64,000 nt of DNA. Source: Minisyncoccia bacterium. GTDB taxonomy: Bacteria > Patescibacteriota > Minisyncoccia > Phycocordibacterales > UBA9973. Shown here one piece after another: positions 6,565-54,246 of this stretch (position 1 is its first letter; every line of letters begins with the position of its first letter). The position numbers and the translations under genes are program-made. Under the pieces are notes generated by a model that saw nothing but the letters and a program-made list of their open reading frames with translations, was not told the DNA's origin and did no database searches. The stretch lies in contig JBGSSJ010000014.1 in NCBI GenBank assembly GCA_041737125.1, forward strand, positions 1,533 to 65,532, read 5' to 3'.

Positions 6565-8247
6565 ATGTCCGAGAATCGTATATGTCAGAATTGTAAGAAC
6601 GAATTCAGTATTGAGGCTGATGACTTTTCTTTCTATGAAAAGATGCAAGTTCCACCACCGACATTCTGTTCACAGTGTCGTATGGTTCGTAGGTTAGTTT
6701 TCCGTAATGAAAGAAGATTATTTAAAGTAAATAATGCTTTTACTGGGGAGAAGATATTCTCTCTATATCCAGAGCAGTCAGGAATGAAGGTCGTCACACA
6801 GGATGAGTGGTTCGGTGATTCTTGGGACCCGAAAGAATATGCTTGTGATTACGATTTCTCAGTAAATTGCTTCCAACAGCTTTTTGATCTGGACAAAAAG
6901 GTTCCTATTTATGGGCTTAATGTAAGGGGGATGATTCAGAGTGATTACTGTGCTAATGCTTCATATCTGAAAGATTGCTACTTACTGTTCAACTCAAATA
7001 CTTCCGAGAACTGTTTATATGGTAATTCTGTCGATACTTCTCGAGATTGTGTAGACAACTCACATATAGCAAAATCTGAGCGTTGCTATGAATCATTCTG
7101 GTTAAATAATTGTTATCAATGTTATTACACTATTATGTGTGTGGACTCAAGGAATATGTGGTTTTCTAGAGACTGTCTTGATTGCAGTAATTGCTTTGGT
7201 TGTACAAATCTAAGGAAAGCCTCGTATTGTATTTTCAACCAGCAATATACAAAAGAAGAATATTTAAATGAATTAAATTTAAATACTAGAAGTGGTATAG
7301 AAGAAGCAAATAAGGTCTGTATGGACTTTTGGAAGACACAACCTAATAAATTACACCAGGGTCTAATGAATACTAATTCTAATGGTGCTTATGTTTCTAA
7401 TTGCAAGAATGTCCTAGATTCATATTTAGTACGTGATAGTGAAGATATGCGCTACTGCCAATATATGCTTGTTGGCGGTAATAAGGACTGCATGGATGCC
7501 TGCGTTTGGGGACAGAAAACTGAACTCTCATACGAGACAGTGACTTGTGGTGAGAACTCTTATAATCTCAAATTCTGTTTTGACTGTTGGCCAAACGTTC
7601 GAGATTGTGAATATTCTCTACATCTGAAATCATCATCGGACTGTTTTGCTTGCGTTGGTTTAAAGAATGCACAGTACTGTATTTTGAATAAACAGTATAC
7701 GAAAGATGAATATTTTGAAATGGTAGAGAAGATAAAGAAACATATGGATGAAATGCCTTATATAGATAAAAAAGGAAGAGTATATAAATATGGGGAATTC
7801 TTTCCAATTGAATTATCTGCTTTTGGTTACAACAATACAGCAGCAAAAGACCAAGCACCGATTAATAAAGAAGAAGTGGAAGAAAATAATTATCCATGGA
7901 TAGAAGTTGATCGTGGTAACTATGATATAACACTTGATGGTAATGATATTCCAGATAATATAAATGATGTAAAGGATAGTATCTTAAATGAAGTTATAAG
8001 ATGTACGAATTGTGGATATGCACACCGTATCGTTCCCGGTGAATTGAATTTCTTAAGGAAAGAATCCTTACCTGTCCCTACTATTTGTTATGAATGCCGT
8101 CATTCTAGAAGGATTGAGAACAGGTTGAGAAATAATCTATATAATAGGAATTGTTCAAAATGCGATATTGCTATAAGTACACCTTTTCCACCAGAGAATG
8201 GAGATATAGTTTATTGTGAAAAGTGTTATCAACAAGAGGTGATATAA
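6565..8247 (+). CDS. Cys-rich repeat protein, paralog 1 of 4, with N- and C-terminal zinc-ribbon 'bookends'
   Basis: 560 aa. N-terminus CQNCKNEFSIEADDFSFYEKMQVPPPTFCSQCRMVRRL; two internal Cys-repeat modules each ending C.GCxxLxxAxYCI.N.QYTK.EY; C-terminus CTNCGY...ELNFLRKESLPVPTICYECRHSRR...VYCEKCYQQEVI. No signal peptide or TM helix. Confidence 0.6.
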   Translation: MSENRICQNCKNEFSIEADDFSFYEKMQVPPPTFCSQCRMVRRLVFRNERRLFKVNNAFTGEKIFSLYPEQSGMKVVTQDEWFGDSWDPKEYACDYDFSVNCFQQLFDLDKKVPIYGLNVRGMIQSDYCANASYLKDCYLLFNSNTSENCLYGNSVDTSRDCVDNSHIAKSERCYESFWLNNCYQCYYTIMCVDSRNMWFSRDCLDCSNCFGCTNLRKASYCIFNQQYTKEEYLNELNLNTRSGIEEANKVCMDFWKTQPNKLHQGLMNTNSNGAYVSNCKNVLDSYLVRDSEDMRYCQYMLVGGNKDCMDACVWGQKTELSYETVTCGENSYNLKFCFDCWPNVRDCEYSLHLKSSSDCFACVGLKNAQYCILNKQYTKDEYFEMVEKIKKHMDEMPYIDKKGRVYKYGEFFPIELSAFGYNNTAAKDQAPINKEEVEENNYPWIEVDRGNYDITLDGNDIPDNINDVKDSILNEVIRCTNCGYAHRIVPGELNFLRKESLPVPTICYECRHSRRIENRLRNNLYNRNCSKCDIAISTPFPPENGDIVYCEKCYQQEVI

Positions 8248-8254
8248 TAAAAGC

Positions 8255-9955
8255 ATGGAGACAAGAAACTGCCAGAACTGCAAAAATAAGTTCAAGATCG
8301 AACCAGACGATTTTTCTTTCTATAATAAGATAAAGGTACCCCCACCTACTTTCTGTCCACAATGTAGACTTATTCGAAGAATGAGTCATACAAACGAAAG
8401 AGTTCTATATAGGCGTAAATGTGATCTGACAGGTGAAAATATCCTTAGTATGTTTGGAGTAGATGCCGAATTCCCAGTATATAAATCTGAAGCTTGGTAT
8501 TCTGATGATTGGGATCCATATAAATATGGAGTAGATTATGATTTTTCTAAGTCATTTTTTGAGCAATTCAAAGAATTATTACAACGAGTACCTAGAATGG
8601 CATTAGTTAAACAAGGTCTTTCTAAGAATAGTGAATATACACACAGAGTCCATGATATGAAAGACTCTCATATGGTTTTTCGTATGTCTGGTAGTTTAGA
8701 TTCATCTTATTGTTATGTAGGTAGAAATATAACGAATTGCGTTGATTGTCTTAGTATCTGGGATAGTGAGTTGTGTTATGAATGTATAGATTGCAATAAT
8801 TGTTACAAGGTCCGATATTCTCAAGAAAGTCATGATTGCAGGGATTCTTTTTTCTTGTATGCCTGCAGAAATTGTTCAAATTGTATCGGTTGTGTAAACT
8901 TGATTAATCAAACACATTGCATTTTTAATGTTAAATACACAAAAGAGGAATACGAGAAAAAATTAAAAGAGCTTAATTTGGAAACTTATTCTGGACTAAA
9001 AGAATTTAAAGATAATTTTGAACAATTTAGAAAAAAGTTTCCATATCGTTCAAATCACTCTTTGAAGTCCAGTAATTATTCTGGTAATTGGATCGTCAGT
9101 TGTCAAAATGTTAAAGAATCATTTGGTTGTATTAATGTAAAAGATGGCAAATATTTATTATGGATTTTTAATGCACAAGATTGCATGGATCATTTCCAGT
9201 GGGGTAATGGAGCCGAGCTTATATACGAATCAGAAAACGTAGGAATTAATGTTTCAAGGGTAAAGTTTTCTTCTCAATGTTGGATGGGTGCTCATGATTT
9301 GGAATACTGTGATTCTTGCCCTGGGGCGGGGAATTGTTTTGGTTGCATAGGATTAAAGAAGGGTGAATACTCTATTTTAAATAAAAAGTATAGTAAAGAA
9401 GAATACGAAGAATTGCTACCTAAAATAAAGCAGCACATGATCGATGTACCATATGTAGATATTAAAGGATGTCTTTATTCATATGGTGAAAATTTCCCTT
9501 TTGAAATATCACCGTTTGCTTATAATGAAACAGCTGCTATCGACTTCTTCCCGATAACAAAAGAGCAGGCTTTAGAGAGTGGTTATAAATGGAAAGATAG
9601 GGAAAAAACTCAGTATAATATAACTAAAGATTTTACTGATCTCCCTGAAACAATAGCAGAAGTGGGCGATGATATAAAAAATGAAATAATATCTTGCGAG
9701 GAATCAGATGAAGAATATTCACCTGGAGCTTTTAATATTACAGACCAAGAATTAGCTTTTTATAGAAAGATGAATTTACCGCTACCACGAGCTTCTTTCT
9801 CCGTCAGACATATGCGTCGTTTCAAACAACGTCCTCCTCTAAAATTAATAAACCGACAATGTTTGAGATGTGGTATAGATGTTGAGACAATTTATACTGA
9901 AGAATTTGCCCCCATTCTTTATTGTGAATCTTGCTATCAACAAGAAGTGATATAA
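8255..9955 (+). CDS. Cys-rich repeat protein, paralog 2 of 4
   Basis: 566 aa; same architecture (CQNCKNKFKIEPDDFSFYNKIKVPPPTFCPQCR..., CFGCIGLKKGEYSILNKKYSKEEYE, ...YCESCYQQEVI); 7-nt gap from paralog 1. Confidence 0.6.
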   Translation: METRNCQNCKNKFKIEPDDFSFYNKIKVPPPTFCPQCRLIRRMSHTNERVLYRRKCDLTGENILSMFGVDAEFPVYKSEAWYSDDWDPYKYGVDYDFSKSFFEQFKELLQRVPRMALVKQGLSKNSEYTHRVHDMKDSHMVFRMSGSLDSSYCYVGRNITNCVDCLSIWDSELCYECIDCNNCYKVRYSQESHDCRDSFFLYACRNCSNCIGCVNLINQTHCIFNVKYTKEEYEKKLKELNLETYSGLKEFKDNFEQFRKKFPYRSNHSLKSSNYSGNWIVSCQNVKESFGCINVKDGKYLLWIFNAQDCMDHFQWGNGAELIYESENVGINVSRVKFSSQCWMGAHDLEYCDSCPGAGNCFGCIGLKKGEYSILNKKYSKEEYEELLPKIKQHMIDVPYVDIKGCLYSYGENFPFEISPFAYNETAAIDFFPITKEQALESGYKWKDREKTQYNITKDFTDLPETIAEVGDDIKNEIISCEESDEEYSPGAFNITDQELAFYRKMNLPLPRASFSVRHMRRFKQRPPLKLINRQCLRCGIDVETIYTEEFAPILYCESCYQQEVI

Positions 9956-9987
9956 AACAATTAAAAATTACTAATTACTAATTACGA

Positions 9988-11667
9988 ATGGAACACAAAG
10001 AAGAAAATAAAATATGTCAAAATTGTAAAAACTCATTCACAATAGAACCAGATGACTTTTCTTTCTATGAGAAAGTAAAAGTTCCACCACCTACATTCTG
10101 CCCAGAGTGTCGTAGGCAGAGAAGGCTGACATGGAGAACTGAGTTTAATTTTTATAACCGTAAATGTGATATGTGCGAGAGGGACATAATCTCTTCTTAT
10201 CCTGCTCGTTCTACACTTAAGGTGTATTGTAATAAATGTTGGTGGAGTGACAATTGGGATCCAAAATCCTATGAGAGAGATATAGACTGGGGGAAAAGCT
10301 TCTTTGATCAATTGCAGGAATTACGAGAATCTGTACCAGTACTCTCACTAATAAATGACAATAATGTAGGAAGTATAAACTGTGAGTACACTCAGAACTT
10401 TGTCCTAAGTAAGAATTGCTATATGTGTATGGTGGCTTGGCATTGGGATGACTGTATGTATTCTTGTTATGGAGCAGATGCTAGAAATTGTGTAGATTGT
10501 ATGGGGTTATTTGGCTCATGCGAGAATTGCTATGAGAGTATTTTTATTGAAAAGTGTTATGGATGTAAGTTTGTCTACCAAAGTACTTCTATGGTAAATT
10601 CTAGTTTCTGTTTTGATTGTAGGAATTGTGATGATTGTTTTATGTGCACAGGACTTAGGAATAAAAAGTTCTATTTTAAAAACAAAAAATATTCTGAAGA
10701 AGAATATAAAGAGATAGTTAGTAATTATGCTATTCATACTTATACAGGACAACAAAAGGCTATAGAAGAATTTCGTAAATTTAAATTGGAAAATATCCAC
10801 CCATATGCATTCTTGAAAAATTGTACATCTTGTACTGGTGGTTATCTTTTCAACTCAAAAAATTCTCAAAATAGTTATAATGCAAGGAACTTAGAAGACT
10901 GTTATTGTGTGGACACCGGCGATACAATGAAAGAATGTCGCGACATTTCTGTGGGTGGGGAAGCGGAGTTGTGCTATGAAGGTGTGACGCCTGATAATTC
11001 TCATGATACTGCATTTACTAATTATACCTGGAAGAGTAGTAGTTGCTATTATTGTGATTTCTGCCAATCTTGTAATGATTGTTTTGGTTGTGTATCTTTG
11101 AAAAAAGGAGAATACTGTATTTTGAACAAACAGTACTCAAAGGCTGAATATTTAGAAATAAAAAATAAATTAATTGAGCATATGAAATCAAATGGAGAGT
11201 GGGGTGAATTTTTTAGAGCCCGAGATTCTTTCTTTGGTTATAATGAAACTATAGCGAACTTCCACTTTCCACTATCAAAGGAACAAGCACTCCGGGAAGG
11301 TTATAAATGGCAAGATAGTTTACAAATTACAACCGGGAAAGAAACATTGGATATAAGTGCCATAGAGGATGATATTAATAATATAAGCGATTCCATAATT
11401 AATGAGACTATCGCTTGCACTTCTTGCTCAAGGAACTACCGTATTACTGAAAATGAGCTTCTTTTTTATCGCAAAATGAATATACCTTTACCCAGGAATT
11501 GCTTTTTCTGTAGGTTAAATAATAGATTTAATTTCCGTAATCCTTCCAAGCTCTGGCACCGCTCATGCATGAAAGAAGGTTGTAATAATGAATTCGAGAC
11601 AAGCTACGCACCAGAAAGGCCGGAGATAGTTTATTGCGAGAAATGTTATCAACAAGAAGTGATATAA
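9988..11667 (+). CDS. Cys-rich repeat protein, paralog 3 of 4
   Basis: 559 aa; MEHKEENKICQNCKNSFTIEPDDFSFYEKVKVPPPTFCPECRRQRR...; ends ...VYCEKCYQQEVI. Confidence 0.6.
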   Translation: MEHKEENKICQNCKNSFTIEPDDFSFYEKVKVPPPTFCPECRRQRRLTWRTEFNFYNRKCDMCERDIISSYPARSTLKVYCNKCWWSDNWDPKSYERDIDWGKSFFDQLQELRESVPVLSLINDNNVGSINCEYTQNFVLSKNCYMCMVAWHWDDCMYSCYGADARNCVDCMGLFGSCENCYESIFIEKCYGCKFVYQSTSMVNSSFCFDCRNCDDCFMCTGLRNKKFYFKNKKYSEEEYKEIVSNYAIHTYTGQQKAIEEFRKFKLENIHPYAFLKNCTSCTGGYLFNSKNSQNSYNARNLEDCYCVDTGDTMKECRDISVGGEAELCYEGVTPDNSHDTAFTNYTWKSSSCYYCDFCQSCNDCFGCVSLKKGEYCILNKQYSKAEYLEIKNKLIEHMKSNGEWGEFFRARDSFFGYNETIANFHFPLSKEQALREGYKWQDSLQITTGKETLDISAIEDDINNISDSIINETIACTSCSRNYRITENELLFYRKMNIPLPRNCFFCRLNNRFNFRNPSKLWHRSCMKEGCNNEFETSYAPERPEIVYCEKCYQQEVI

Positions 11668-11713
11668 AACAATTAAAAATTACTAATTACTAATTACTAA
11701 TTACTAATTACGA

Positions 11714-13414
11714 ATGGAACACAAAGAAGAAAATAAAATATGTCAAAATTGTAAAAACTCATTCACAATAGAACCAGATGACTTTTCTTTCTATGAGAAG
11801 ATAAAAGTTCCACCGCCTACTTTTTGCCCGGAGTGTAGGAGGCATAGAAGATTCGGCTGGAGGAATTATGTGAATTACTACAAACGAACTTGTGGACTTA
11901 GTGGTGAGTCTCTTATATCACTATACAGTGAAGATTCTGGCATTACCGTCTACTCTCCGAAAGCTTGGCATTCGGATAAATGGGACGCACTTGATTACGG
12001 ACAGGAGTACGATTTCTCTAAATCATTTTTTGAACAATATACACGCTTACTCTATGCTGTGCCCAAGCCAGCTATGGATACTGACGATGGATTACTAAGC
12101 ACGAATTGTATGTATACCAATGACTTTGCTATGGGGAAAGACTGTTACCTGGTGGTGAAAGCTTGGAAGCTTGAGAATGTAATGTATTCATTCTATGTGG
12201 TGAACAGTCGCGACTTGGTAGATGTGCATACTAGCTTTGGTAAGGATGAAGGTAACTATGAGACGGTTAACACAGAGCATTGTTACCAATGTAAATATGT
12301 ATATGATTCTAGGAGTTGCTCGGATTCCAGCTTCTGTTTTGACTGTAGGAATTGTGACCACACCTTTATGTGCACAGGGCTTCGTGGGAAGTCATACTAT
12401 TTTAAGAATGAGGAAGTAGGTAAAGAGAAGTATGAAGAGATTATGAAAGAATATGCACTTCATACTTACTTGGGAGTAGAGAAAGCTAAGAAAGAATTCG
12501 AACCGATGATGTTTAATCATCCCAGGAAAGCAGTTCGAATACTAAATTCTGTTGATTGTTCTGGTGACCTATTAACTAATTGTCATAATTGCAAGAATTG
12601 TTTTCTAATGCTAGATAGTGAGAATTGTCGATATGATAATTATGCTGATGGAGCTCGCGATTCGTATGATACCGATGCCGGAGGAGGATCTGAGCTTGCT
12701 TATGAGTCTGACCTGCCTGCATTCTCTGCGAATATTGTTGGTAGTTATTCTGCTTGGTATTGCCAGGACGTAAGCTATGTGAGTCATATGTATAGGAGTA
12801 AAGACTGCTTCGGGTGTGATGGATTGAAGAATGCACAATACTCTATACTCAATAAGCAATATACGAAAGAAGAATATTTCAATATGCTAGAGAAGATAAA
12901 GAAGCACATGGACGACATGCCTTATATAGATAAGATGGGGAATATGTATAAGTACGGTGACTATTTACCATTGGAATTATCATACTTCCCTTACAAAGAC
13001 ACAGAAGCGATGGAGCTATATCCGCTTGATGATAATGCCTTACTTACGAGGGGATATAAAGAGAAGAAAATAAATGAGAACTCACAAATAATGGAGACAA
13101 TAAAAGCAGAAGACTTGCCAGACTCTATTGATGATGTGTCTGATGATATATTAAGTGAGATAATTCTATCAAAAGGAGGAGAGAAGAAATATAAAATAAC
13201 AGAGCAAGAATTAAATTTCTATCGGAAGTATAGAATTCCACTACCTCGTGAATCTTTTTTCGAAAGGCATGTCCGTAGGCATAAAATGGCAAGTTCATTT
13301 AGGTTATATGAACGAGTAAGTGATAAGTCAGGTGAAGTTGTTCAAAGTTCTTATCCAATAGAAGCAAAGGAAACAGTGTGGAGTGTAGAGGAATATAGAA
13401 AAGAGTTTGAATAG
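11714..13414 (+). CDS. Cys-rich repeat protein, paralog 4 of 4, lacking the terminal CxxC ribbon
   Basis: 566 aa; the first ~42 residues and ~50 nt upstream are near-identical to paralog 3, then diverge; the C-terminus keeps ELNFYRKYRIPLPRESFFERHVRRHK but has no final CEKCYQQEVI. Confidence 0.6.
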   Translation: MEHKEENKICQNCKNSFTIEPDDFSFYEKIKVPPPTFCPECRRHRRFGWRNYVNYYKRTCGLSGESLISLYSEDSGITVYSPKAWHSDKWDALDYGQEYDFSKSFFEQYTRLLYAVPKPAMDTDDGLLSTNCMYTNDFAMGKDCYLVVKAWKLENVMYSFYVVNSRDLVDVHTSFGKDEGNYETVNTEHCYQCKYVYDSRSCSDSSFCFDCRNCDHTFMCTGLRGKSYYFKNEEVGKEKYEEIMKEYALHTYLGVEKAKKEFEPMMFNHPRKAVRILNSVDCSGDLLTNCHNCKNCFLMLDSENCRYDNYADGARDSYDTDAGGGSELAYESDLPAFSANIVGSYSAWYCQDVSYVSHMYRSKDCFGCDGLKNAQYSILNKQYTKEEYFNMLEKIKKHMDDMPYIDKMGNMYKYGDYLPLELSYFPYKDTEAMELYPLDDNALLTRGYKEKKINENSQIMETIKAEDLPDSIDDVSDDILSEIILSKGGEKKYKITEQELNFYRKYRIPLPRESFFERHVRRHKMASSFRLYERVSDKSGEVVQSSYPIEAKETVWSVEEYRKEFE

Positions 13415-13458: not shown

Positions 13459-14226
13459 ATGGCTGTGATTATAAAAACTAAAGAAGAGATAGATATACTT
13501 CGCGTTGGGGGCAAGAGATTGGCCTCTATTTTGGCGAAAGTGGCTAAAAAGGTTGCCCCAGGGGTGACTACCAAAGAGCTTGATCTATATGCCTACACAC
13601 TCATAAAAGAAATGGGGGATGAGCCAGCATTCCTAAACTATAAGCCAGAGGGCCAATCGAAGGCTTTCCCGGCCTCTCTTTGTACATCTGTAAATAATGA
13701 AATAGTTCATGGCATACCAGGCGATGAGAAAGTTCTAAAAGAGGGGGATATTATAGCCATAGACTTGGGGCTCAAGCATAAAGGACTTTTTACAGATCAT
13801 GCTATCACTGTGCCTGTCGGCAAAGTGCCAAAGGCATCACAAGTACTGATGCAAAAGACTAAAGAAGCGCTCTGTGTAGGAATAGAACAAGCAAAAGCGG
13901 GTAATACAGTTGGGGACATAGGCTATGCTATAGAGAAATTCGTCGGTGGGAAGTATGGCATAGTCCGCGAACTTTCAGGTCATGGAGTCGGGAAGAAGAT
14001 TCACGAAGATCCATATATTCCTAACTATGGAAAGCGCGGCAAAGGCCAGAAGTTGATCCCGGGTATGGTTGTGGCTATTGAACCAATGCTTAATATCGGT
14101 AAAGCCTCTATCTTAACTACGTCTGATGGATATACGATAAAGACAGCAGATGGTACGCGCTCAGCGCACTTTGAGCACACTGTTCTCATAACAGAAGGCG
14201 AACCAGAGATTCTAACTACAATATAA
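13459..14226 (+). CDS. map: Methionine aminopeptidase type I
   Basis: 255 aa; pita-bread metal ligands and motifs (VHGIPGD, IIAIDLG, HFEHTVLITE); canonical partner of adk in this cluster. Confidence 0.9.
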   Translation: MAVIIKTKEEIDILRVGGKRLASILAKVAKKVAPGVTTKELDLYAYTLIKEMGDEPAFLNYKPEGQSKAFPASLCTSVNNEIVHGIPGDEKVLKEGDIIAIDLGLKHKGLFTDHAITVPVGKVPKASQVLMQKTKEALCVGIEQAKAGNTVGDIGYAIEKFVGGKYGIVRELSGHGVGKKIHEDPYIPNYGKRGKGQKLIPGMVVAIEPMLNIGKASILTTSDGYTIKTADGTRSAHFEHTVLITEGEPEILTTI

Positions 14227-14229: not shown

Positions 14230-14400
14230 TGCTTCAAATTATATAATAAAAAATGGCACGCAAATTTTGAAGCTTAAAATTTAGAAAAGCGAGTTACTGT
14301 AAATTTTATTCGTTTATCCCTACTCAGACTGCGTCTGAGCGCGCGCCCACACCTACTCATAAAATTTACAATAACTCGCCTTTCTTTGCATTCTGTATGA
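14230..14400. repeat. MITE-like compound inverted-repeat element
   Basis: Hairpin gcttcaaatt...aattttgaagc at 14230-14272; near-perfect ~24-bp terminal inverted repeat gaaaagcgagttactgtaaattttat (14284-14311) / ataaaatttacaataactcgcctttc (14358-14385) enclosing the inner hairpin ctcagac-tgc-gtctgag. Confidence 0.4.
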
Positions 14401-14413: not shown

Positions 14414-17140
14414 ATGGAAGGATTAAATCTAAACAATGCACAGAAATTTAAAACTCCCCAAGAAGAGCTTGAGTTTCTTCGTGCGCATATAGCAGAGAAA
14501 GAGAGAGCCCTCATAGACCAAGGGCAGGAATATTCACGTGAGAACTTGGCTCATGATGTTATTTCTGAATACAAGAAATACGAACCTGAAGATGTCATGC
14601 ACAAAAGTGTGACCATACCACAGCCTGATGTAGAGAATTTCGTTCTACGGCTCCATCCAGAAACTCACGATAATAAAATGGAAGAAATGCTCGGTATATT
14701 ACTTTCGAAAGGCATATCAAGCGCACTATCTATAGTAGGCAAAATGCACAACCCGCACCTAGACGATGATTTCCATAGATTTCTAGTTCAATACCTATAC
14801 AGCACTCACAAAATTCCAGGACTCAAAGAGGGTACTCCACTATTCAAATCTCTCGATATGAAATTATTCGAGATAACACTTCCTGATCCTACAGATGACG
14901 AGAAAGATAAGAAAGGTTTAAAGGAATTACTTTCCGCCATGGAGCAATTCTATGCTGGTATGCATTCTGTCGGTGAAGGCAGACAGAATTTTAATCGTAA
15001 TCACTTCACTCTCGAGATCGCTCTGTCTGAGAACAGTGATCATTTCATATTCTACACAGCAGTACCGTCAAATAAAGCAGATTTATTCGAGAAGCAATTA
15101 CTGGGAGTTCACCCCAATGCCAAGATAATGGAAGCCCCAGATGATTACAATATTTTCGCTGATGGTTCTGCTATTGCTGGCTCATATGCCAAGCTTGCTC
15201 ATAATGAAGTCTTCCCGATCAAGACATACGATACCATAGAGCATGATCCTCTAAATATAATATTGAATGTCTTCACGAAGTTAAAAAAGTCTGGTGAGGG
15301 TGCTTCTGTGCAGTTCACAATTTGTCCGGAAGATGATGACATAATAAAAAAGTTCCATATAATGCTTGGTGATGTGAAGGAAGGCATGTCTGTAAAAACG
15401 GCTGGAAGCCTCACTCGTCAATTCGGTAAAGAAATAGAAAATATAGCAGGAGAATTATTCTTCGGTTCTTCAAAGACTAAAGAGAAGAAAGTAAATGATG
15501 AAGCCGTAGAGAAGATAACAGAGAAGATAAAGAGCACTATCATGGCTTGTAATATACGCATTGTCGCATCTGCTGAAGATTCTAATCGTGCCAAGCAAAT
15601 CCTCTCTGATCTTGAATCATCCTTCAATCAGTTCACTGAAGCCAATAGGAATGGATTTGATTTTAAGCATGTATCAGGGGCAGATTTAGATAAACTTATA
15701 CATGAGTTCTCCTACCGCACTTTCTCACAAGATTACTCCATGCCACTCAATCTCAAAGAGCTTGCTACTATATTCCACTTCCCACATGGCATAGGTTCAT
15801 CTCCACAGCTTAAGCAAGCTCGTGCTGGTATTGCTCCTGCACCTATGGAAATGGGGGTAGAAGGGACCATACTCGGTGTTAATAGTTATCGAGGTAAAGA
15901 TACAGAGATACATTTTGCTCCGGAGGATCGTATGAGACATATGTATGTTATCGGTCAGACAGGTACAGGTAAGACTACAATTATGAAGAACATGATAGCT
16001 CAAGACATAAAGGCAGGCCACGGCGTATGCTATATCGACCCACACGGCACAGATATCCAAGACATACTAAGTTACATTCCGAAAGAGCGTATTGATGATG
16101 TGATTTATTTCGATCCTGCTTATACTCCTCGCCCTATGGGGCTCAACATGCTTGAATATGATCCGAAGTATCCAGAACAGAAGACTTTCGTTGTGAATGA
16201 GCTTATGAACATATTCAACAAACTTTTCGACATGAAGACCTCTGGAGGTCCGATGTTCGAACAGTATTTCAAGAACTCAGCATTCCTGGTGATGGAGCAC
16301 CCTGAGACTGGGTCCACTTTGCTTGAGATTGGACGCGTGCTTGCCGATAAAGAATTCCGTGACATGAAGCTCTCTCACTGTAAGAACCCCATTATTACTC
16401 AATTCTGGAAGAGTGCAGAGCAGACAACAGGTGATCAATCTATTGCGAACTTCGTGCCATATATTACTTCCAAGTTCGACAACTTCATCTCGAACGATAT
16501 CATGCGCCCGGTTGTGCTCCAGCAGAATTCTGTTTTCAATTTCAGAGAGATTATGGATAATAAGAAGATATTACTTGTGAACCTTGCCAAAGGTCGCCTT
16601 GGTGATATAAATGCGAACCTCATAGGTCTCTTAATAGTGAACAAGATTCAGATGGCTGCACTTTCTCGTGTGGATATGTATGGCAAGAAGATGGAAGACT
16701 TCTTCCTCTATATAGACGAATTCCAGAATGTGACCACTGACTCTATCGAGTCCATACTATCCGAGGCACGTAAGTACCGCCTGTCACTCACTGTAGCCCA
16801 CCAGTACATATCACAGCTTGAAGATAATATAAAGAATGCAGTATTTGGTAACGTCGGCTCTATGGCAGTGTTCCGTGTCGGTGCTGAAGATGCGCAATTC
16901 CTTGAAAGTAAATACAAACCAGTTTTCAGTGCAGCAGACATTATGAAGATTGATAACTATAATGCTTATGTGTCTATGCTTATCAAAGGCCAGCCTACGA
17001 AACCTTTCAATATGGCAACACTACGACCACCAACAGGAAATATGGAAATAGTAGAGAAGATTAAAGAGCTTTCATATCTGAAGTTCGGCCGCGAGCGCTC
17101 CGAAGTAGAAGAAGAAATAATGGATAAATATAGGCAGTAA
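14414..17140 (+). CDS. FtsK/HerA/VirD4-superfamily P-loop ATPase (TraG/VirD4- or DUF87-like) with a ~480-aa N-terminal domain of unknown function
   Basis: 908 aa; Walker A GQTGTGKTT, Walker B FLYIDEFQNV, C-terminal ARKYRLSLTVAHQYISQL (the R-K...Q motif of coupling-protein/HerA ATPases); no TM segments. Confidence 0.65.
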   Translation: MEGLNLNNAQKFKTPQEELEFLRAHIAEKERALIDQGQEYSRENLAHDVISEYKKYEPEDVMHKSVTIPQPDVENFVLRLHPETHDNKMEEMLGILLSKGISSALSIVGKMHNPHLDDDFHRFLVQYLYSTHKIPGLKEGTPLFKSLDMKLFEITLPDPTDDEKDKKGLKELLSAMEQFYAGMHSVGEGRQNFNRNHFTLEIALSENSDHFIFYTAVPSNKADLFEKQLLGVHPNAKIMEAPDDYNIFADGSAIAGSYAKLAHNEVFPIKTYDTIEHDPLNIILNVFTKLKKSGEGASVQFTICPEDDDIIKKFHIMLGDVKEGMSVKTAGSLTRQFGKEIENIAGELFFGSSKTKEKKVNDEAVEKITEKIKSTIMACNIRIVASAEDSNRAKQILSDLESSFNQFTEANRNGFDFKHVSGADLDKLIHEFSYRTFSQDYSMPLNLKELATIFHFPHGIGSSPQLKQARAGIAPAPMEMGVEGTILGVNSYRGKDTEIHFAPEDRMRHMYVIGQTGTGKTTIMKNMIAQDIKAGHGVCYIDPHGTDIQDILSYIPKERIDDVIYFDPAYTPRPMGLNMLEYDPKYPEQKTFVVNELMNIFNKLFDMKTSGGPMFEQYFKNSAFLVMEHPETGSTLLEIGRVLADKEFRDMKLSHCKNPIITQFWKSAEQTTGDQSIANFVPYITSKFDNFISNDIMRPVVLQQNSVFNFREIMDNKKILLVNLAKGRLGDINANLIGLLIVNKIQMAALSRVDMYGKKMEDFFLYIDEFQNVTTDSIESILSEARKYRLSLTVAHQYISQLEDNIKNAVFGNVGSMAVFRVGAEDAQFLESKYKPVFSAADIMKIDNYNAYVSMLIKGQPTKPFNMATLRPPTGNMEIVEKIKELSYLKFGRERSEVEEEIMDKYRQ

Positions 17141-21932: not shown

Positions 21933-22769
21933 ATGGAGGACACTATGATAATAGCTTACAAAAATATGGGGGAAACACCCCTTGCATGCCTAGAGAGGGT
22001 ACGCCAAGAGCGCTCTCTTCCTGCAAATCTTCCTATGACTTATGCAGGCCGGCTAGACCCTATGGCAGAAGGTGTCATGATTATACTTTTGGGGGAGGAG
22101 TGTAAGAATAAAGATAAATATCTAGGCTTAGATAAGATATATGAATTTGAAATATTGGTAGGTTTTGCAACTGATACTTATGATTTATTAGGAATGGTGC
22201 TAGAGTCCTCGAATGAAGGATTACGAACGGTCTGGCCGAGCTTCCAAAAGAATTCGGCGAGGAGATCCGAGGACCTGAGTAATTCTTCATTGGAGGATGG
22301 AAGGGAAAATCTTTTTTCCGGCTTTACTCAAACTTTCCAATCTTTCATCGGCACATTTGTACAGAAGTATCCGAGCTTCTCTTCGAAGACGATAGATGGC
22401 AAGCAACTTTTCCAACTTTCTAAAGATGATAATTTACCAGACGAGCTTCCATCTCATACCGTGACGATTAGCGAACTATTATGTACTAGTACATGGATAC
22501 AAAAGAAAGATGAGTTAGAGACGGAAATAAAGAGGCGCATAGGACTTGTTCATGGTGACTTCCGCCAAGAAGAAATATTAAATAGATGGCATGAAGTTTT
22601 GGAGAACTTAACACAAGAATCTTTCAAGATTATTGCGTGTACAGTGTCTGCTAGTAGTGGCACATACGTTAGACAACTAGTCGCTGATATCAGTGAGAAG
22701 ATGGGAATTCCTATGACAACTTATTCTATAAAACGTACGAATGTAGGGGAATACAAGCTAAATTCATAA
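21933..22769 (+). CDS. truB: tRNA pseudouridine synthase TruB-family protein carrying an in-frame insertion
   Basis: 278 aa; catalytic motif YAGRLDPMAEGVMIILLGEE (GxLDPxAxG); the insertion ...KNSARRSEDLSNSS... is encoded by the 45-nt repeat at 22230-22274. Confidence 0.65.
   Translation: MEDTMIIAYKNMGETPLACLERVRQERSLPANLPMTYAGRLDPMAEGVMIILLGEECKNKDKYLGLDKIYEFEILVGFATDTYDLLGMVLESSNEGLRTVWPSFQKNSARRSEDLSNSSLEDGRENLFSGFTQTFQSFIGTFVQKYPSFSSKTIDGKQLFQLSKDDNLPDELPSHTVTISELLCTSTWIQKKDELETEIKRRIGLVHGDFRQEEILNRWHEVLENLTQESFKIIACTVSASSGTYVRQLVADISEKMGIPMTTYSIKRTNVGEYKLNS
22230..22274. repeat. Short dispersed repeat, copy A, in frame inside truB
   Basis: gtctggcc-N22-cgaggagatccgaggac; the same 8-mer and 17-mer with the same spacing recur at 57952-57997 inside ligA. 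Confidence 0.5.
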
Positions 22770-25105: not shown

Positions 25106-25549
25106 ATGACACTTTTGATAGACAACAGGAAAGCACACTTTAATTATGAGGTTGTAAGCCGATACGAAGCAGGTATTGAGCTTTTGGGCTTGGAAGTGAA
25201 GTCTATCAAGAACGGCCGAGCGATACTTGCTGGAGCATTTGCTATAGTGCGCGGAGGTGAAGTCTATCTTATGAATATGCAAATCCCACCTTACCAAGTA
25301 GGGAACACCCCGCTTGATTATGACCCGACTCGTACTCGCAAGCTCTTGCTAAGTAGGAAACAGATTAATGAAATAGCCCCGAATGGTGACATGAAGAGTT
25401 TGACGCTAGTACCATTATCATTGTATAGTAAAGGGCGCTTGATAAAAGTAGAACTCGCTGTCGTAAAAGGTAAGAAGAATTACGACAAGAGGGAGACCAT
25501 AAAGAAGCGGGAGACAGATAGGGAGATAGATCGCGAGTATAAGAGATAA
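25106..25549 (+). CDS. smpB: SsrA-binding protein SmpB
   Basis: 147 aa; KAHFNYEV..., GIELLGLEVKSIK, DPTRTRKLLL motifs; lies immediately upstream of the tmRNA. Confidence 0.9.
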   Translation: MTLLIDNRKAHFNYEVVSRYEAGIELLGLEVKSIKNGRAILAGAFAIVRGGEVYLMNMQIPPYQVGNTPLDYDPTRTRKLLLSRKQINEIAPNGDMKSLTLVPLSLYSKGRLIKVELAVVKGKKNYDKRETIKKRETDREIDREYKR

Positions 25550-25651
25550 TTACAAATGACGAGTTACGAATTACGAATGGAGCCCACTTGGATTTCATTA
25601 TTAATTAGTAATTTGAAATTCGTAATTAAAATTTTCTTTGAAAATTTATAT

Positions 25652-26044
25652 GGGACTGACGGGCTTCGACGAAGGATCGTCCTCATAAATATGCATGTAA
25701 AGTACCCAGGAATCTTTTAAAACTTCTTGGAAAAGACTAAGTGCAAACAAAGTCGCTTCAATTAAATCACCTTACTCTTTTGGGTTTGGTAATTTAGTTC
25801 CTGCTGTCGCCTAAACGGTCACACAGGTGTCTCTCTTATCGACATCCGATACATAGGGGAGGCATAATTTATCGGGTTACGAATCTATCACTGCTTGAGT
25901 TAGATTCCGACAATGAAGAGCTCGGTGTTCACTTTTTTTGTTTGTTCTCTAGAGTGAATATTTAAACCAAATGAACATACTACACATGTAGATTTATTTA
26001 TGAACATCTTTTGCATCTGGGTTCAACTCCCAGCAGTTCCACCA
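25652..26044 (+). ncRNA. ssrA: tmRNA (SsrA)
   Basis: 5' GGGACUG pairs with 3' CAGUUCC including a G3-U wobble (Ala identity); GGGTTCAACTCCC T-arm, discriminator A, CCA at 26042-26044; tag ORF GCA...TAA (25743-25814) encodes ANKVASIKSPYSFGFGNLVPAVA*; adjacent to smpB. Confidence 0.85.
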
Positions 26045-26108: not shown

Positions 26109-26480
26109 AAGTAAGATTGTATTATTTTTTCTTTGTATAAAAGAAAAAAGAGCTTTCCTAACGAGGTCTAAATGAAGGGTAGGCCCAATGCGCCCTTTGT
26201 TTCTAAAAATTCTTTTCTTGCTTTGGATTTTATCTAAAGTAAAATAACTTATATTGTGGGTGTGGGGATGTAAAGAGCGTGTGCTAAGGTTTACCTTGCC
26301 ACGCTTCTTTTTTTATCCCCACCCATCTATTGACGACATATTGTATTTTATGTACCCTAAAAAGATAAGTTTGTTTTTAGTTTTTTACAATCTCCTGAAC
26401 TGAGGACTCAGGGAACAAAGAAATTAAAAACAAATTCAGATCTTTCAACAATTTTTTTCATCATTTAAATCTTACGATCT

Positions 26481-26855
26481 ATGAAAAAGTTAATTCTTTT
26501 CCTGTCGTTGATTATGTTAGTAGGCATTGCTTTTGCCTACACACCTATGGCCTCACCACAGACAGAGGACCAACAAGTGGCTTCCGATTTTGTTTTTGCA
26601 GCTATTATTGTACCTGATGCCGCAAACTGCCAGGAGTGGCAAAGTTTCACTACCGACATTGTGGCTACTCTTGGTATAAAAGTTGGTGGCGAAAATAAAC
26701 TGGAAGAACAAGCAAGCAACAGCGGCGCGATAAAAGCAGGCAATCCCGGGGAGGTGGATTATTCTATGAAAACACATATAAATGTTAATTCAGAAAATAA
26801 CACTACCGATGCAACAGCCGTAAACACGATGGAACATTTCGTTCCCCGTGAGTAA
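26481..26855 (+). CDS. Small secreted protein
   Basis: 124 aa; signal peptide MKKLILFLSLIMLVGIAFA, then a polar Ser/Thr/Asn-rich domain. Confidence 0.5.
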   Translation: MKKLILFLSLIMLVGIAFAYTPMASPQTEDQQVASDFVFAAIIVPDAANCQEWQSFTTDIVATLGIKVGGENKLEEQASNSGAIKAGNPGEVDYSMKTHINVNSENNTTDATAVNTMEHFVPRE

Positions 26856-33068: not shown

Positions 33069-33659
33069 ATGGAACAATCTAAAAAAATAGAGACAAAAAC
33101 AGACAAGGAGATAGTCCTTCAGATTAAAAAAGGAGATCATGATCTTTTCAGTGAAATAGTATCTCGGTATGAGCCGAAGCTCAGGCGTTATGCTCGTAAG
33201 TTCCTATTTAAATATAATGACGTCGACGATCTTGTGCAAGATGTTTTCATAAAAGTTTATATAAATCTCCAGAGTTTCGATGATGATAGGGAATTCTCGC
33301 CTTGGATATATAGAATAGCTCACAATACATATGTGAATGCTCTAAAGAAGAAATTAACTGACCGTATATTCTCGACTGACTTTTTTGATTTTGATACTTT
33401 CTTACCTCATACAGGTGAAGCTGAGAGGGCAGACAAAGAGAGTGATAGGGAATTAATAAAGAAAGAGCTTGATCACCACTTAGACTCTATCGATGCGAAG
33501 TACCGCGAAATATTAATTCTTTATTTCTATGAAGATATGGATTACAAAGAGATTGCCCAAGTTCTAGGCATCCCCATATCGACCGTGGGTGTACGTATTA
33601 AAAGAGGTAAAGATAAGCTAAAGGAGCTATTATCAAATAATAATTTTATTTATGAGTAA
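33069..33659 (+). CDS. ECF-type RNA polymerase sigma factor
   Basis: 196 aa; region 2 (DLVQDVFIKVYINLQSF, FSPWIYRIAHNTYVNALKK) and region 4 HTH (DYKEIAQVLGIPISTVGVRIKRGKDKL). Confidence 0.85.
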   Translation: MEQSKKIETKTDKEIVLQIKKGDHDLFSEIVSRYEPKLRRYARKFLFKYNDVDDLVQDVFIKVYINLQSFDDDREFSPWIYRIAHNTYVNALKKKLTDRIFSTDFFDFDTFLPHTGEAERADKESDRELIKKELDHHLDSIDAKYREILILYFYEDMDYKEIAQVLGIPISTVGVRIKRGKDKLKELLSNNNFIYE

Positions 33660-34224
33660 TCTAAATGAAGAAAATTCAATACAAGGGAAAGTGTTAACTG
33701 CTATAAAGGAAGGCAAGCTTGTTATGAAGCCGAAGTGGCATTTCGTACTCAAAACAGTCATGCATATACTAGTGGCTGTTATATTATTCTTCGCACTTAT
33801 CTATCTTATTAGTTTTATTGGCCTTGTCGCTCGAGAGAAAGAATTATTTAAACTATTAAACCTAAACCCTCGGGAGCTTTACTTACTGATGACATCAATC
33901 CCTTGGATTATAGTTATTTTATCTATATTTCTATTATTTACTTTCTATAAATTAGTAAAAGAATATGCATTTATCTATAAGAAGCCACTTGTTTATAGCC
34001 TCTCGGGGATTATATTCCTTGTAGTATTAATAGGTGCCATTATCCAGATACTTGATGTGAACTTCAGATTTGCGCGTTTCGGTGAAGGTCCGCGTGTGCC
34101 AGTACTTGGACCTATGCATAAGTACTATAGGGGAGATATGGACAAGAGGCCAATGATGAAGTTCCGTGATGACAGAAGGGGTATGATGCCACCTCGCGAA
34201 TTAGAGTCTCCATTTTTGAAATAA
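33652..34224 (+). CDS. Putative membrane anti-sigma factor or sigma-associated membrane protein
   Basis: 190 aa; start overlaps the sigma gene stop; three TM helices; Arg/Met-rich C-terminus; the assignment is positional. Confidence 0.4.
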   Translation: MSNLNEENSIQGKVLTAIKEGKLVMKPKWHFVLKTVMHILVAVILFFALIYLISFIGLVAREKELFKLLNLNPRELYLLMTSIPWIIVILSIFLLFTFYKLVKEYAFIYKKPLVYSLSGIIFLVVLIGAIIQILDVNFRFARFGEGPRVPVLGPMHKYYRGDMDKRPMMKFRDDRRGMMPPRELESPFLK

Positions 34225-51907: not shown

Positions 51908-51923
51908 AGTAAATGTTTCAAAT

Positions 51924-51953
51924 AAAAAAACCACCAAAAGGGTGGTTTTTTTA
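51924..51953 (+). terminator. Rho-independent terminator after the first pilin
   Basis: aaaaaaaccacc-aaaa-ggtggttttttt. Confidence 0.8.
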
Positions 51954-52018
51954 TTTGTAGGTGTTATAATTAATTTACTCATTAAAGTCGTATTTATTAT
52001 TTTATTATTTTATTTATT

Positions 52019-53361: not shown

Positions 53362-53397
53362 TTATTAATTTTTATAATTGGGTGCTATAATATCTAT

Positions 53398-54237: not shown

Positions 54238-54246
54238 CATTTATAA

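Follow-up and report, generated by a model that had tools for sequence, protein, structure and literature searches.

A hairpin-forming DNA repeat lies in frame within genes for core enzymes of Paceibacteria-type Patescibacteria

Why should two unrelated enzymes, the tRNA pseudouridine-55 synthase TruB and the NAD-dependent DNA ligase LigA, share a run of nucleotides? In the 64-kb window (the whole stretch of DNA analysed here), an initial annotation had noticed an identical 17-mer, CGAGGAGATCCGAGGAC, in both genes, preceded in each case by GTCTGGCC, and had interpreted the pair as a nucleotide-level element of ~45 nt inserted in frame into surface loops. Both matches are exact and on the + strand: the 17-mer lies at 22258-22274 and 57981-57997, and GTCTGGCC at 22230-22237 and 57952-57959. 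The variable spacer, given as 22 nt, measures 20 nt in truB and 21 nt in ligA. As had been reported, both host ORFs are open (278 aa for TruB, 704 aa for LigA), and the 17-mer is read in different frames, TruB reading ..NSARRSEDLSNSS.. and LigA a different peptide. With up to 3 mismatches, the 17-mer was found at these two sites of the window, compared with 0.12 expected from shuffled sequences. No third copy was detected in the 64 kb, either with 3 mismatches or with a covariance model at E up to 1. The two copies and their parts are as follows.

21933-22769, + strand: host gene truB, tRNA pseudouridine-55 synthase, 278 aa (ORF; homologues with PF01509)
22205-22298, + strand: whole truB hairpin element, 94 nt, about TruB aa 91-122
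22205-22224, + strand: truB copy, 5' arm of the outer stem, GTCCTCGAATGAAGGATTAC, pairing with 22279-22298
22230-22237, + strand: truB copy, 5' core, GTCTGGCC, conserved
22238-22257, + strand: truB copy, variable apical hairpin, GAGCTTCCAAAAGAATTCGG, from the fold; 'cgagc..gcga' subfamily
22258-22274, + strand: truB copy, 3' core, CGAGGAGATCCGAGGAC, conserved; exact 17-mer
22279-22298, + strand: truB copy, 3' arm of the outer stem, GTAATTCTTCATTGGAGGAT, from the fold
56652-58766, + strand: host gene ligA, NAD-dependent DNA ligase, 704 aa (ORF; homologues with the LigA domain set)
57921-58028, + strand: whole ligA hairpin element, 108 nt, LigA aa 424-459, zinc finger
57921-57941, + strand: ligA copy, 5' arm of the outer stem, ACTGGAAACGGACAAAGTCCT, pairing with 58007-58028
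57952-57959, + strand: ligA copy, 5' core, GTCTGGCC, conserved
57958-57985, + strand: ligA copy, apical hairpin CCTCGAC-14 nt-GTCGAGG, from sequence and fold
57981-57997, + strand: ligA copy, 3' core, CGAGGAGATCCGAGGAC, conserved; exact 17-mer
58007-58028, + strand: ligA copy, 3' arm of the outer stem, AGGAGCTTTGTCTGTTTCCAGT, from the fold

Each window copy is enclosed by a further outer stem of 20-22 bp, which the initial annotation had missed, the truB arm being unrelated in sequence to the ligA arm. The inserted unit therefore comprises 94 nt in truB and 108 nt in ligA; the 45-nt segment originally described is real but corresponds to the conserved core of a ~95-108-nt hairpin. RNA folding yielded −43.2 kcal/mol for the truB element (z −4.6 relative to shuffles) and −50.1 to −51.2 kcal/mol for the ligA element (z −6.4). 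With the covariance model, the copies scored 78.3 bits (truB; E 3.5e-17) and 68.9 bits (ligA). The inverted repeat cctcgac/gtcgagg noticed earlier in ligA is present at 57958-57964 and 57979-57985, where it forms the apical hairpin. The 'cgagc..gcga' apical subfamily of the truB copy is also seen in further host genes and in intergenic copies from other genomes, and the 'ctcgacc' subfamily of the ligA copy in LigA of three relatives (L011, L063, and L121). Other hairpins of the window (2589-2667, 4513-4593, 33444-33525, 34015-34134, and 35017-35104) were rejected as sister elements, as BLAST against ~0.9 Mb of related DNA revealed no sharing; the one at 2589-2667 lies within an L18 protein of normal length.

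The element extends far beyond the window. In species-representative genomes, the search pattern GTCTGGC-N14-34-GGAGATCCGAGGAC matched at least 118 loci, and metagenomes contributed at least 120, compared with ~6 expected by chance according to our estimate. Altogether, the same core was recovered from >240 contigs, with ~55% of the copies in long ORFs. Among the matches listed, nearly all genome records with the core are labelled as Patescibacteria lineages, Paceibacteria-type, and several genomes contain 3-6 copies. No match to the pattern was found in viral contigs, and a viral origin was rejected. The density is low: in addition to the 2 copies in 64 kb, the covariance model finds only 8 further copies in 742 kb, and we estimate one copy per 30-90 kb.

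Counting a copy as intragenic when it lies in an open frame of at least 450 nt, 69 of the 121 matches listed for genomes and 66 of the 122 listed for metagenomes qualify. The frame stays open in all 135, and in the genome set all three frames on each strand are used. Antisense copies outnumber sense copies in genomes (50 vs 19) as well as in metagenomes (51 vs 15). In PolA and LigA, host domains are found on both sides of the insert within a single ORF. The hosts fall into ~50 protein groups, of which PolA, LigA, UvrA/B/C/D, RecG, TGT, TrmD, TruB, and PheS/T recur; judged by raw recurrence among the copies collected, these are mostly DNA-repair/replication and tRNA enzymes. The metagenome set weakened the idea that nucleic-acid enzymes are targeted exclusively, since copies were also found in IF-2, SHMT, a Mur ligase, an HtrA-like protease, an FAD oxidase, and an aminotransferase. 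Copies outside long ORFs lie between the end of one gene and the start of the next. No split genes, as an intron or a bypass would lead one to expect, were seen among them. Nor did the intergenic copies have a recurrent neighbour gene (the largest cluster comprised 3), and a cis-regulatory leader of one gene was rejected. The occurrence in ~50 host protein groups, in six frames, in both orientations, and between genes supports the earlier view of a nucleotide-level repeat rather than a shared protein motif.

Across the family, the full element measures ~80-110 nt. It consists of an outer stem of ~20-30 bp, whose sequence differs at each site, and a conserved asymmetric core at the top of the hairpin, 5'-GGUCUGG...CCGAGGACC-3', in which the helices GUCU/GGAC and GG/CC leave GA unpaired. 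The subfamily of the window copies has GGAGAU as an extension of the core and a variable apical hairpin as its cap. Some copies of the family display an internal loop of the form G-N-A/G-N-A together with basal G-C pairs. The 5' core GTCTGGCC is invariant in 112 aligned copies, which were themselves picked by this pattern. Because the copies were collected with an exact pattern, the conservation is partly circular, and the covariance-model search revealed that divergent cores exist. Both window copies fold strongly and the stem covaries across the family. RNAalifold identified 21 pairs, including 13 outer pairs for each of which 16-57 sequences had changed on both sides with pairing kept. The two arms of one copy align over a median of 21 nt with 90% complementarity, compared with a median of 8 nt when the arms come from two different copies.

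The substitutions within the stem also reveal which strand matters. Transitions that leave a G·U pair numbered 68 on the GTCTGG strand and 13 on the complement. The bias was retained when counted by copies (45 vs 9, p = 7e-7) and with one copy per host cluster (17 vs 5, p = 0.017), and it had the same direction in copies antisense to the host gene (38 vs 6). Since wobbles in antisense copies still favour the strand of the element, a structure acting at the mRNA level was rejected. We conclude that the hairpin is under selection on its own GTCTGG strand, whatever the orientation of the host gene. At the gathering threshold, Rfam 15 returned only tRNA and tmRNA genes in the window and nothing for either copy; at E up to 10, both copies gave only generic hairpin (miRNA-precursor) matches. 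Likewise, 16 loci with intergenic copies contained no known family beyond tRNA/tmRNA and generic miRNA-like hairpins.

Read-through copies add a multiple of 3 nt, which corresponds to an extra loop of ~30 aa. In an AlphaFold2 model of TruB, the host that was modelled, the mean pLDDT was 89.5, whereas the insert (about aa 93-130) reached 44-64, with values <50 at aa 105-122, and had no secondary structure. The model places it in a low-pLDDT loop between a strand and a helix; this predicted disorder is in line with the original proposal that the insert is tolerated in a surface loop. The PolA insert lies between the 5'-3' exonuclease and polymerase domains. In LigA, the insert does separate the Cys pairs of the zinc finger, as had been stated; the loop comprises 48 aa (claimed: ~47), compared with 16-25 aa, rather than ~13-16, in the 27 of 120 relatives that are free of the insert. 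In most relatives with an insert, the Pfam domain of the LigA zinc finger is not detected. TruB orthologues also lack the insert residues, and orthologues without the insert thus exist for both hosts. Judged from the TruB model and from the positions in LigA and PolA, the insert sites appear to be structurally permissive, surface-exposed positions.

The LigA site varies in state among the 120 relatives, being empty in 27, occupied by a forward copy in 20 and by a reversed copy in 31-38, and assigned to other states in 35. LigA pairs with 89-97% protein identity differ in site state, and clean indels of 99 nt and 87 nt, both multiples of 3, were found, the latter in a pair with ~90% nucleotide identity. 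An unrelated hairpin can occupy the same site in close relatives. LigA of the window and of L121 (85% identical) carry the same subfamily in opposite orientation. Among pairs of copies at orthologous sites, 80 had the same orientation and 82 were flipped, and both orientations at one site were observed in PolA, LigA, TGT, TruB, UvrC, PheT, and RecG. In flipped pairs, the core and the inner stem are reversed while the flanks stay, with the breakpoints in the arms. Flips start at 88% flank identity and below; the non-identical pairs at ≥92% flank identity had the same orientation in 4 of 4 cases. Two filled/empty LigA pairs (L120/L119 and L122/L123) displayed no clean direct repeat, only a weak, ambiguous resemblance of 5-6 nt (CTYACY; A-TCGC/ACTGC). 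They are compatible with outer arms derived from an inverted duplication of the target but ambiguous, and this idea was set aside. The differences in presence and orientation between relatives suggest that the element is mobile.

These results support the central interpretation of the initial annotation, a nucleotide-level element in frame in surface loops. The element works at the DNA level and is translated in place within genes. We consider it probable that it represents a dispersed palindromic DNA repeat family specific to Paceibacteria-type Patescibacteria (CPR), which is selfish and acts as a single-stranded hairpin. The element, probably selfish, would be non-autonomous, and its own GTCTGG strand would be propagated or maintained in the form of a single-stranded hairpin, with the conserved core as a putative recognition site for a protein. 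Copies would survive only where the hairpin is tolerated, namely, in surface loops and interdomain linkers of low-abundance enzymes and, between genes, in the loops of terminator-like hairpins. Changes in orientation would be explained most simply by recombination or template switching between the two arms, which would also keep the arms complementary.

Some observations sit less easily with this explanation. The LigA indels lack a clear target-site duplication in the two filled/empty comparisons, and the outer arms vary between copies, unlike the terminal inverted repeats of classical MITEs. Genomes in which LigA is only 60-70% identical at the protein level still have the core in common, and pairing in the stem is strongly preserved. 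Both exceed the need of a decaying selfish element and could mean a host function. Furthermore, simple tolerance may not fully explain the DNA-repair/replication and tRNA enzymes among the hosts.

More tentatively, the element might be the substrate of a so far undescribed, structure-specific system of single-strand DNA recombination/transposition in CPR that recognises the bulged core GGUCUGG..CCGAGGACC, inserts into hairpins, and remodels loops; we regard this as possible, though clearly short of probable. Such a system would insert preferentially into hairpins already present, which would explain the site-specific arms, the occurrence of unrelated hairpin families at common hotspots, and the nesting of copies within terminator-like stems. 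In-frame cassettes would then be flipped or swapped in essential DNA-repair/tRNA enzymes, whose surface loops would be continually remodelled.

It is rather unlikely that the bulged core instead serves the host, as a putative binding site of a cellular protein on ssDNA or RNA that is selected in particular genes. Such a site might act in recombination or replication, in DNA uptake, or, as a hairpin, in the processing or regulation of RNA. A conserved core within surroundings that vary yet stay paired, together with strand-specific G·U selection independent of host transcription, would suit such a motif. So would the leaning of the recurrent hosts toward genome-maintenance and tRNA enzymes, which recalls the reported bias of neisserial and Haemophilus uptake sequences to genome-maintenance genes, although the density of uptake sequences correlates only poorly with functional category (PMC2817400). 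A type IV pilin-like cluster adjoins ligA in the window. However, the density of 2 copies per 64 kb, with 8 more in 742 kb, is far below the hundreds to thousands per genome of uptake sequences, and the uptake signal was therefore rejected. A host motif would also have to accommodate both orientations relative to genes, intergenic copies without a recurrent neighbour, many relatives without the element at the same site, and unrelated hairpins that can fill the same spot.

A programmed intragenic inverton, with the arms as inverted repeats and two isoforms differing in a ~30-aa loop, is less probable again. Intragenic invertons have already been described (bioRxiv 10.1101/2023.03.11.532203), and the two orientations in seven hosts, the near-equal numbers of flipped and unflipped pairs with breakpoints in the arms, and an ORF that is open in either orientation would be expected of one. 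Yet the lack of flips above 88% flank identity and the co-orientation of all pairs at ≥92% make switching look slow and not phase-variable. Moreover, because the arms differ from site to site, they could not serve as the target of a single site-specific invertase. The loops, for which disorder is predicted, reside in housekeeping enzymes, where two isoforms would have no obvious use.

An intervening sequence removed at the RNA level (a mini-intron, an excised and re-ligated hairpin, or a translational bypass) would be absent from the mature protein; we hold this to be very unlikely. CPR bacteria are known for insertions in rRNA genes, and a long stable hairpin with a conserved core and a defined base would be in keeping with such a sequence. 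Removal from the RNA would, however, need neither an open frame nor a multiple of 3, which all 135 intragenic copies and the 99- and 87-nt indels, respectively, display. About three quarters of the intragenic copies are antisense to the mRNA with wobbles that follow the element strand, and no Rfam match, ribozymes and introns included, was obtained. The two window copies might also match by chance or through a motif shared by the proteins. Only their common location in nucleic-acid enzymes speaks for this, and the shuffles together with the >240 further copies in six frames and between genes refute it for practical purposes.

As a probably selfish palindromic repeat, the CPR element most closely resembles the Rickettsia palindromic elements (RPEs) of Ogata et al. 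2000, summarised in PMC10969869. Both are short palindromic repeats (~100-150 bp for RPEs) dispersed in reduced genomes, in frame in many unrelated genes and intergenic as well. Translation of either one yields an additional peptide segment that is considered compatible with the fold of the protein, and no transposase has been assigned to either. The CPR element thus has the RPE-like traits of a multi-copy palindrome in frame in unrelated genes. The host phyla differ (Patescibacteria vs Alphaproteobacteria), and we liken the two by description without claiming common descent. Unlike RPEs, the CPR element has a small bulged core conserved at the top of the hairpin with site-specific arms, occurs in both orientations at one orthologous site, shifts in state between close relatives, shares its spot with unrelated hairpin families, and bears a strand-specific G·U signature. 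MITEs such as Correia/NEMIS, ERIC, and Nezha (PMC10969869) are likewise small, non-coding, hairpin-capable, and multi-copy, with occasional in-frame fusions. Their terminal repeats are conserved between copies and accompanied by target-site duplications, whereas the arms of the CPR element vary even within one genome and no clear duplication appeared in the two filled/empty comparisons. The CPR element therefore lacks the conserved terminal inverted repeats of a classical MITE.

Like REP/REPIN-RAYT and the hairpin ends of IS200/IS605, the CPR element is a structure-defined, strand-specific hairpin that probably acts as a single strand, and its wobble pattern is that expected of such single-strand substrates. 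IS200/IS605-type elements (HUH Y1, ssDNA) require neither terminal inverted repeats nor target duplications, as may be true of the CPR element. REPs, which are extragenic, measure 20-40 nt and bear a GTAG or CGTC tag (PMC3733652); the CPR element measures 80-110 nt, has another motif with no such tag by the palindrome, and is intragenic in more than half of the cases. In comparison with the intragenic invertons (bioRxiv 10.1101/2023.03.11.532203), which are also flanked by inverted repeats, found in both orientations within genes, and recode the protein, inversion of the CPR element is seen only between lineages, at flank identities of ≤88%, and its arms vary from site to site. The coding palindromes of Nematomorpha mitochondria (PMC6649704) are also long inverted repeats in genes with both arms translated, but they are organellar, much longer, and form no dispersed family with a common core. 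DUS/USS share with the CPR element the character of nucleotide-level motifs in ORFs, in several frames, with a reported leaning to genome maintenance (PMC2817400). They are, however, 9-12-mers present in hundreds to thousands per genome, as opposed to ~100 nt and an estimated one copy per ~30-90 kb.

Integron attC sites are imperfect palindromes of ~60-140 nt, for which the folded single-strand structure, unpaired bases, and strand preference matter. They have conserved boxes at the base and a variable top, and flank gene cassettes near the integrase, outside ORFs. In both attC sites and the CPR element, the sequence varies and the structure matters; the conserved part lies at the base in attC and at the top in the CPR element.

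A large part of bacterial diversity belongs to the Patescibacteria (CPR), whose genomes are very small and generally considered to contain few repeats and little mobile DNA. Our literature search found no description of such elements in CPR. A widespread hairpin element in frame in core replication, repair, and tRNA enzymes of CPR accounts for many lineage-specific insertions in their proteins. Loops derived from it call for caution when used as phylogenetic or functional characters, and its sites are markers for strain-level turnover. The Rickettsia case of selfish DNA inside proteins is thereby extended to a second, unrelated group of reduced genomes. The short core, the strand-specific signature, the orientation changes, and the hotspots common to several hairpin families make the mechanism testable. 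If a dedicated enzyme recognises the core, it would represent a new single-strand DNA recombination activity.

The 17-mer CGAGGAGATCCGAGGAC was found as exact matches at 22258-22274 in truB and 57981-57997 in ligA, both on the + strand, and each match is preceded by GTCTGGCC, starting at 22230 and 57952, respectively. The initial annotation had thus described the shared 17-mer and 8-mer correctly, but the spacer between them, given there as 22 nt, measures 20 nt in the truB copy and 21 nt in that of ligA. No third match to the 17-mer with up to three mismatches occurs in the window (expectation from shuffling, 0.12). As also proposed, both host ORFs stay open and the 17-mer is read in different frames, as ARRSED in TruB and RGDPR in LigA. 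Folding, one of the suggested checks, revealed a hairpin with common core pairing in both copies. The repeat therefore stands, but the supposed unit of ~45 nt is the top of a larger hairpin.

Elements of the window and their host ORFs
22205-22298, + strand, truB element, 94 nt on folding
57921-58028, + strand, ligA element, 108 nt on folding
21933-22769, TruB-type host ORF, 278 aa, open across the element
56652-58766, LigA host ORF, 704 aa, open across the element

Each copy has an outer stem of 20-22 bp, unrelated in sequence between truB and ligA, and a folding energy of -43 to -51 kcal/mol, with z-scores against dinucleotide shuffles of -4.6 (truB) and -6.4 (ligA). In the core, GUCU pairs with GGAC and GG with CC, while GA and AGAU on the 3' side are unpaired. 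A variable hairpin caps the top (GCCGA../..UCGGC in truB, CCUCGAC/GUCGAGG in ligA). Several of the divergent copies detected by the covariance model have only a minimal core, GGUCUGG-UG(N4-8)-CCCGAGGACC, without GGAGAU and the apical hairpin; thus, the universal motif is GGUCUGG...CCGAGGACC. Different host genes and genomes have subfamilies of the apical hairpin (cgagc..gcga, ctgcc..ggaca, cgggg..cccc) and of the inner flank (two kinds, gaAUG/CUGAg and aaaAU/UUUUu) in common, and both assort without regard to the outer arms, which are specific to each site. Rfam 15 contained no comparable family; at E up to 10, generic miRNA-precursor hairpin models alone were returned.

The window has a G+C content of ~37%, and the best relatives of its LigA and TruB are encoded by Patescibacteria/Paceibacterota metagenome-assembled genomes. 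We scanned one genome per species (596 Gb) for the pattern GTCTGGC-N14-34-GGAGATCCGAGGAC and obtained at least 118 loci, with an estimated ~6 expected by chance. At least 120 further loci were detected in metagenome contigs and none in viral contigs. Nearly all listed genome matches carry labels such as Paceibacterota, Nomurabacteria, Vogelbacteria, Adlerbacteria or Minisyncoccia, and several genomes hold 3-6 copies among the matches listed. One locus in an IS110 transposase gene in high-GC DNA (L105) looks like one of the expected chance matches. A covariance model trained on 112 copies recovered the two known copies and no others in the window; in 742 kb of related DNA, it detected 8 further copies of greater divergence. 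The density is estimated at about one copy per 30-90 kb. The search beyond the window, with copies in both orientations, several frames and intergenic DNA, bears out the proposal of a nucleotide-level repeat instead of a protein motif. We conclude that the element belongs to a family of DNA-level palindromic repeats found in CPR bacteria (Patescibacteria) of the Paceibacteria type.

Placement was counted for open frames of at least 450 nt. Among the matches listed from species-representative genomes, including both window copies, 69 of 121 lie in such frames, 50 antisense and 19 sense to the GTCTGG strand; among those listed from metagenome contigs, the numbers are 66 of 122, with 51 antisense and 15 sense. 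The in-ORF copies of the genome set occupy all three frames on each strand. The antisense excess is probably caused by stop codons, since direct reading of the sequence shows UGA and UAA on the sense strand in the core-adjacent flanks (e.g., CUGAG), and the complement has no stops there. Because the in-gene copies are in frame and keep the ORF open, they are most likely translated. Copies outside long ORFs are intergenic, the hairpin filling the spacer from one gene end to the next start in either orientation; neither an element-split gene nor a recurrent neighbouring gene was seen among them. Some lie within a G+C-rich outer stem with a T run after it and resemble terminators. In two genomes, a minimal-core copy (GGTCTGGTGAC..ACCCGAGGACC) adjoins a full copy on the opposite strand within one intergenic spacer (L003, 2174-2259/2263-2369; L093, 2402-2485/2508-2615).

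The 69 in-ORF genome copies fall into 31 protein clusters, a few of them unannotated.

Host proteins in the genome set
PolA: 10 copies, all near residue 325, between the 5'-3' exonuclease and polymerase domains
LigA: 9 copies
TGT: 5 copies
PheT, UvrC, TrmD, TruB: 4 copies each
RecG: 3 copies
CCA-adding enzyme, UvrD, UvrB: 2 copies each
LeuRS, Dus, VirD4-like protein, RseP, DprA, GatA, ParB, RecJ, UvrA, PheS, TsaD: 1 copy each
RecA, SodA: 1 copy each, near the N-terminus, and possibly upstream of the true start

The same hosts recur in the metagenome set, which adds IF-2, GatB, SHMT, a Mur ligase, an FAD oxidase, HtrA-like proteases and others. A class V aminotransferase gene of this set (L203) holds two copies ~400 nt apart (3238-3274 and 3640-3674). 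By raw copy counts, the hosts lean strikingly, though not exclusively, towards DNA-repair/replication and tRNA enzymes. This may simply arise because the insert survives in long, multidomain, low-abundance enzymes with flexible linkers.

The loop between the LigA Cys pairs comprises 16-25 aa in 27 of 120 relatives and 33-67 aa in the others. In one filled/empty pair, a 102-nt hairpin cleanly takes the place of 3 nt (net +99 nt), and a second pair of ~90% nucleotide identity differs by a clean 87-nt indel. Both 99 and 87 are multiples of three, and the entire stem is part of the inserted DNA. TruB orthologues carry sense copies, antisense copies, variants or empty sites at one position. The ortholog comparison, another suggested check, thus identified both inserts as lineage-specific, with empty-site relatives. 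Among the LigA relatives P0001-P0120, the precomputed Pfam match to the LigA zinc-binding domain PF03119 is absent from most insert-bearing proteins, as it is from the LigA of the window, and present in most insert-free ones; therefore, profile searches tend to miss the domain where the insert is present. An AlphaFold2 model of the window TruB, built with 62 homologues, had a mean pLDDT of 89.5, falling to 44-64 over approximately residues 93-130, a stretch without secondary structure between strand 89-92 and helix 124-136. The TruB insert is accordingly modeled as a predicted disordered surface loop.

The commonest LigA insert of relatives is the reverse complement of the window element and encodes SPRISS (AGT CCT CGG ATC TCC TCG) and GQTISH (GGC CAG ACT ATT TCT CAT). 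The closest LigA relative (L121, 85% protein identity) carries the window subfamily at the same site but reversed, with the common ctcgacc apical hairpin and ~80% nucleotide identity by hand alignment. We compared 218 copies with 260-nt flanks and paired those matching in both flanks, which gave 80 orthologous-site pairs in the same and 82 in flipped orientation. Leaving identical pairs aside, all four pairs whose flanks agree at 92% or more were in the same orientation; flips appeared from 88% downward, and the two states were about even near 80%. In flipped pairs the core and inner stem (~60-70 nt) are reversed within outer sequence of unchanged orientation, the outcome expected of recombination or template switching between the arms.

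LigA pairs of 89-97% protein identity differ in state: reversed versus empty, forward versus reversed, or element versus a different insert. Two ligA genes of ~95% nucleotide identity over their length carry, at the same spot, the element (L124) versus an unrelated hairpin (L125; metagenome contig, gene 301-2388) with a 25-bp stem GCAGAAGCGAGCCGTTTATGATCGC...GCGAATCATAAACGGCTCGCTTCTGC and the top TTTACCCTAAAGGGCTCCGAC, coding for ..RFTLKGSD... Still other insert families occupy this spot in ~35 of 120 relatives (e.g., ..RVGAPVERVKR.., ..GKGLSSRNEVERGKSLRS.., ..PTGPSREIFQQKNIRAF..). The LigA insert of relative P0065 looks like one insert family nested in another. The element is thus dynamic between close relatives, which may have or lack it, carry it in either orientation or have another insert in its place, and its sites are hotspots with fast turnover. 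If new copies went into existing hairpins, this would account at once for the hotspots, for the terminator-like stems around some copies and for the arms peculiar to each site.

RNAalifold predicted 21 pairs for 112 copies. Eight core pairs are essentially invariant, a consequence of the pattern-based selection of copies; for each of the 13 outer pairs, 16-57 sequences have both sides changed with the pair kept. The median alignment between the 5' arm and the reverse-complemented 3' arm spans 21 nt at 90% identity, compared with 8 nt for arms from different copies.

G·U bias, GTCTGG strand versus complement
G·U-leaving transitions, all: 68 versus 13
Copies with G·U excess on that strand: 45 versus 9 (p = 7e-7)
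The same, one copy per host cluster: 17 versus 5 (p = 0.017)
Copies antisense to the host gene: 38 versus 6

Because this bias favours the GTCTGG strand even in antisense copies, the hairpin is under constraint in single-stranded form, with the polarity of the element itself, and not as host mRNA or merely as a double-stranded palindrome. This fits a single-stranded DNA intermediate, of the kind known for HUH-type enzymes acting on REP, IS200/IS605 or attC-like substrates, and equally an independent transcript.

The element has a conserved core and is under strand-specific structural constraint. We infer a selfish, non-autonomous element whose core would be recognised by some protein as a single-stranded hairpin; survival would be restricted to permissive loops, and exchange between the arms would flip the element and keep the arms complementary. 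The strongest rival is a protein-binding motif that serves the host. Core conservation and host-gene bias favour it, whereas the low density, the dispensability of the element, the acceptance of either orientation and the use of the site by unrelated hairpins do not. A programmed intragenic inverton ranks second and is disfavoured by the lack of flips between near-identical sequences. Removal at the RNA level comes third; the preserved frame and the wobble signal, which follows the element strand, speak against it. A chance match is excluded.

The window contains further hairpins and repeats.

14283-14385, 103-nt hairpin in the intergenic space from ORF 13459-14226 to ORF 14414-17140; 27-bp stem, 93% complementary, fully paired including G·U on the minus strand (-48 kcal/mol); G+C-rich top GTGGGCGCGCGCTCAGACGCAGTCTGAG; no Rfam match at the gathering threshold
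26368-26436, 19-bp A/U-rich hairpin in the spacer following the tmRNA gene (25652-26044), upstream of ORF 26481-26855
2589-2667, 79-nt G+C-rich (51%) hairpin with a 17-bp stem in the gene for ribosomal protein L18 (2443-2784); the protein aligns to its Pfam profile from one end to the other (2-116 of 116), and the hairpin is therefore not an insertion
34015-34134, 120-nt hairpin, outer stem of 14 bp, in ORF 33652-34224 (190 aa, without a Pfam match); the ORF lies immediately downstream of a gene for an ECF-type sigma factor (33069-33659)
6565-8247, 8255-9955, 9988-11667 and 11714-13414, four tandem paralogues of ~560 aa each
9950-9997 and 11662-11723, heptamer runs (TAATTAC/AATTACT) just upstream of the start codons of the last two paralogues; similar runs, in either orientation, at 1437-1478 and 25539-25635
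51380-56648, run of small genes with prepilin-type N-termini (..GFTLIEL..) directly upstream of ligA; the order recurs in related contigs (L119, L120), where N_methyl-domain genes precede ligA and gatC/gatA follow it

Of the known phenomena, the Rickettsia palindromic elements come closest, being dispersed palindromes with in-frame insertions in numerous genes (Ogata et al., 2000, as summarised in PMC10969869); the coding palindromes of nematomorph mitochondria (PMC6649704) are a more distant parallel. The element is not a classical MITE, as terminal repeats are not conserved among its copies, and it differs from REP/REPIN sequences in size, tag and location. Its density does not suit an uptake sequence, and it matched no Rfam family. 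In the searchable literature, we came across no report of such elements from CPR bacteria. There is a minority chance that the element marks a new single-strand recombination system, and the family is relevant to research on mobile DNA and CPR genomes.
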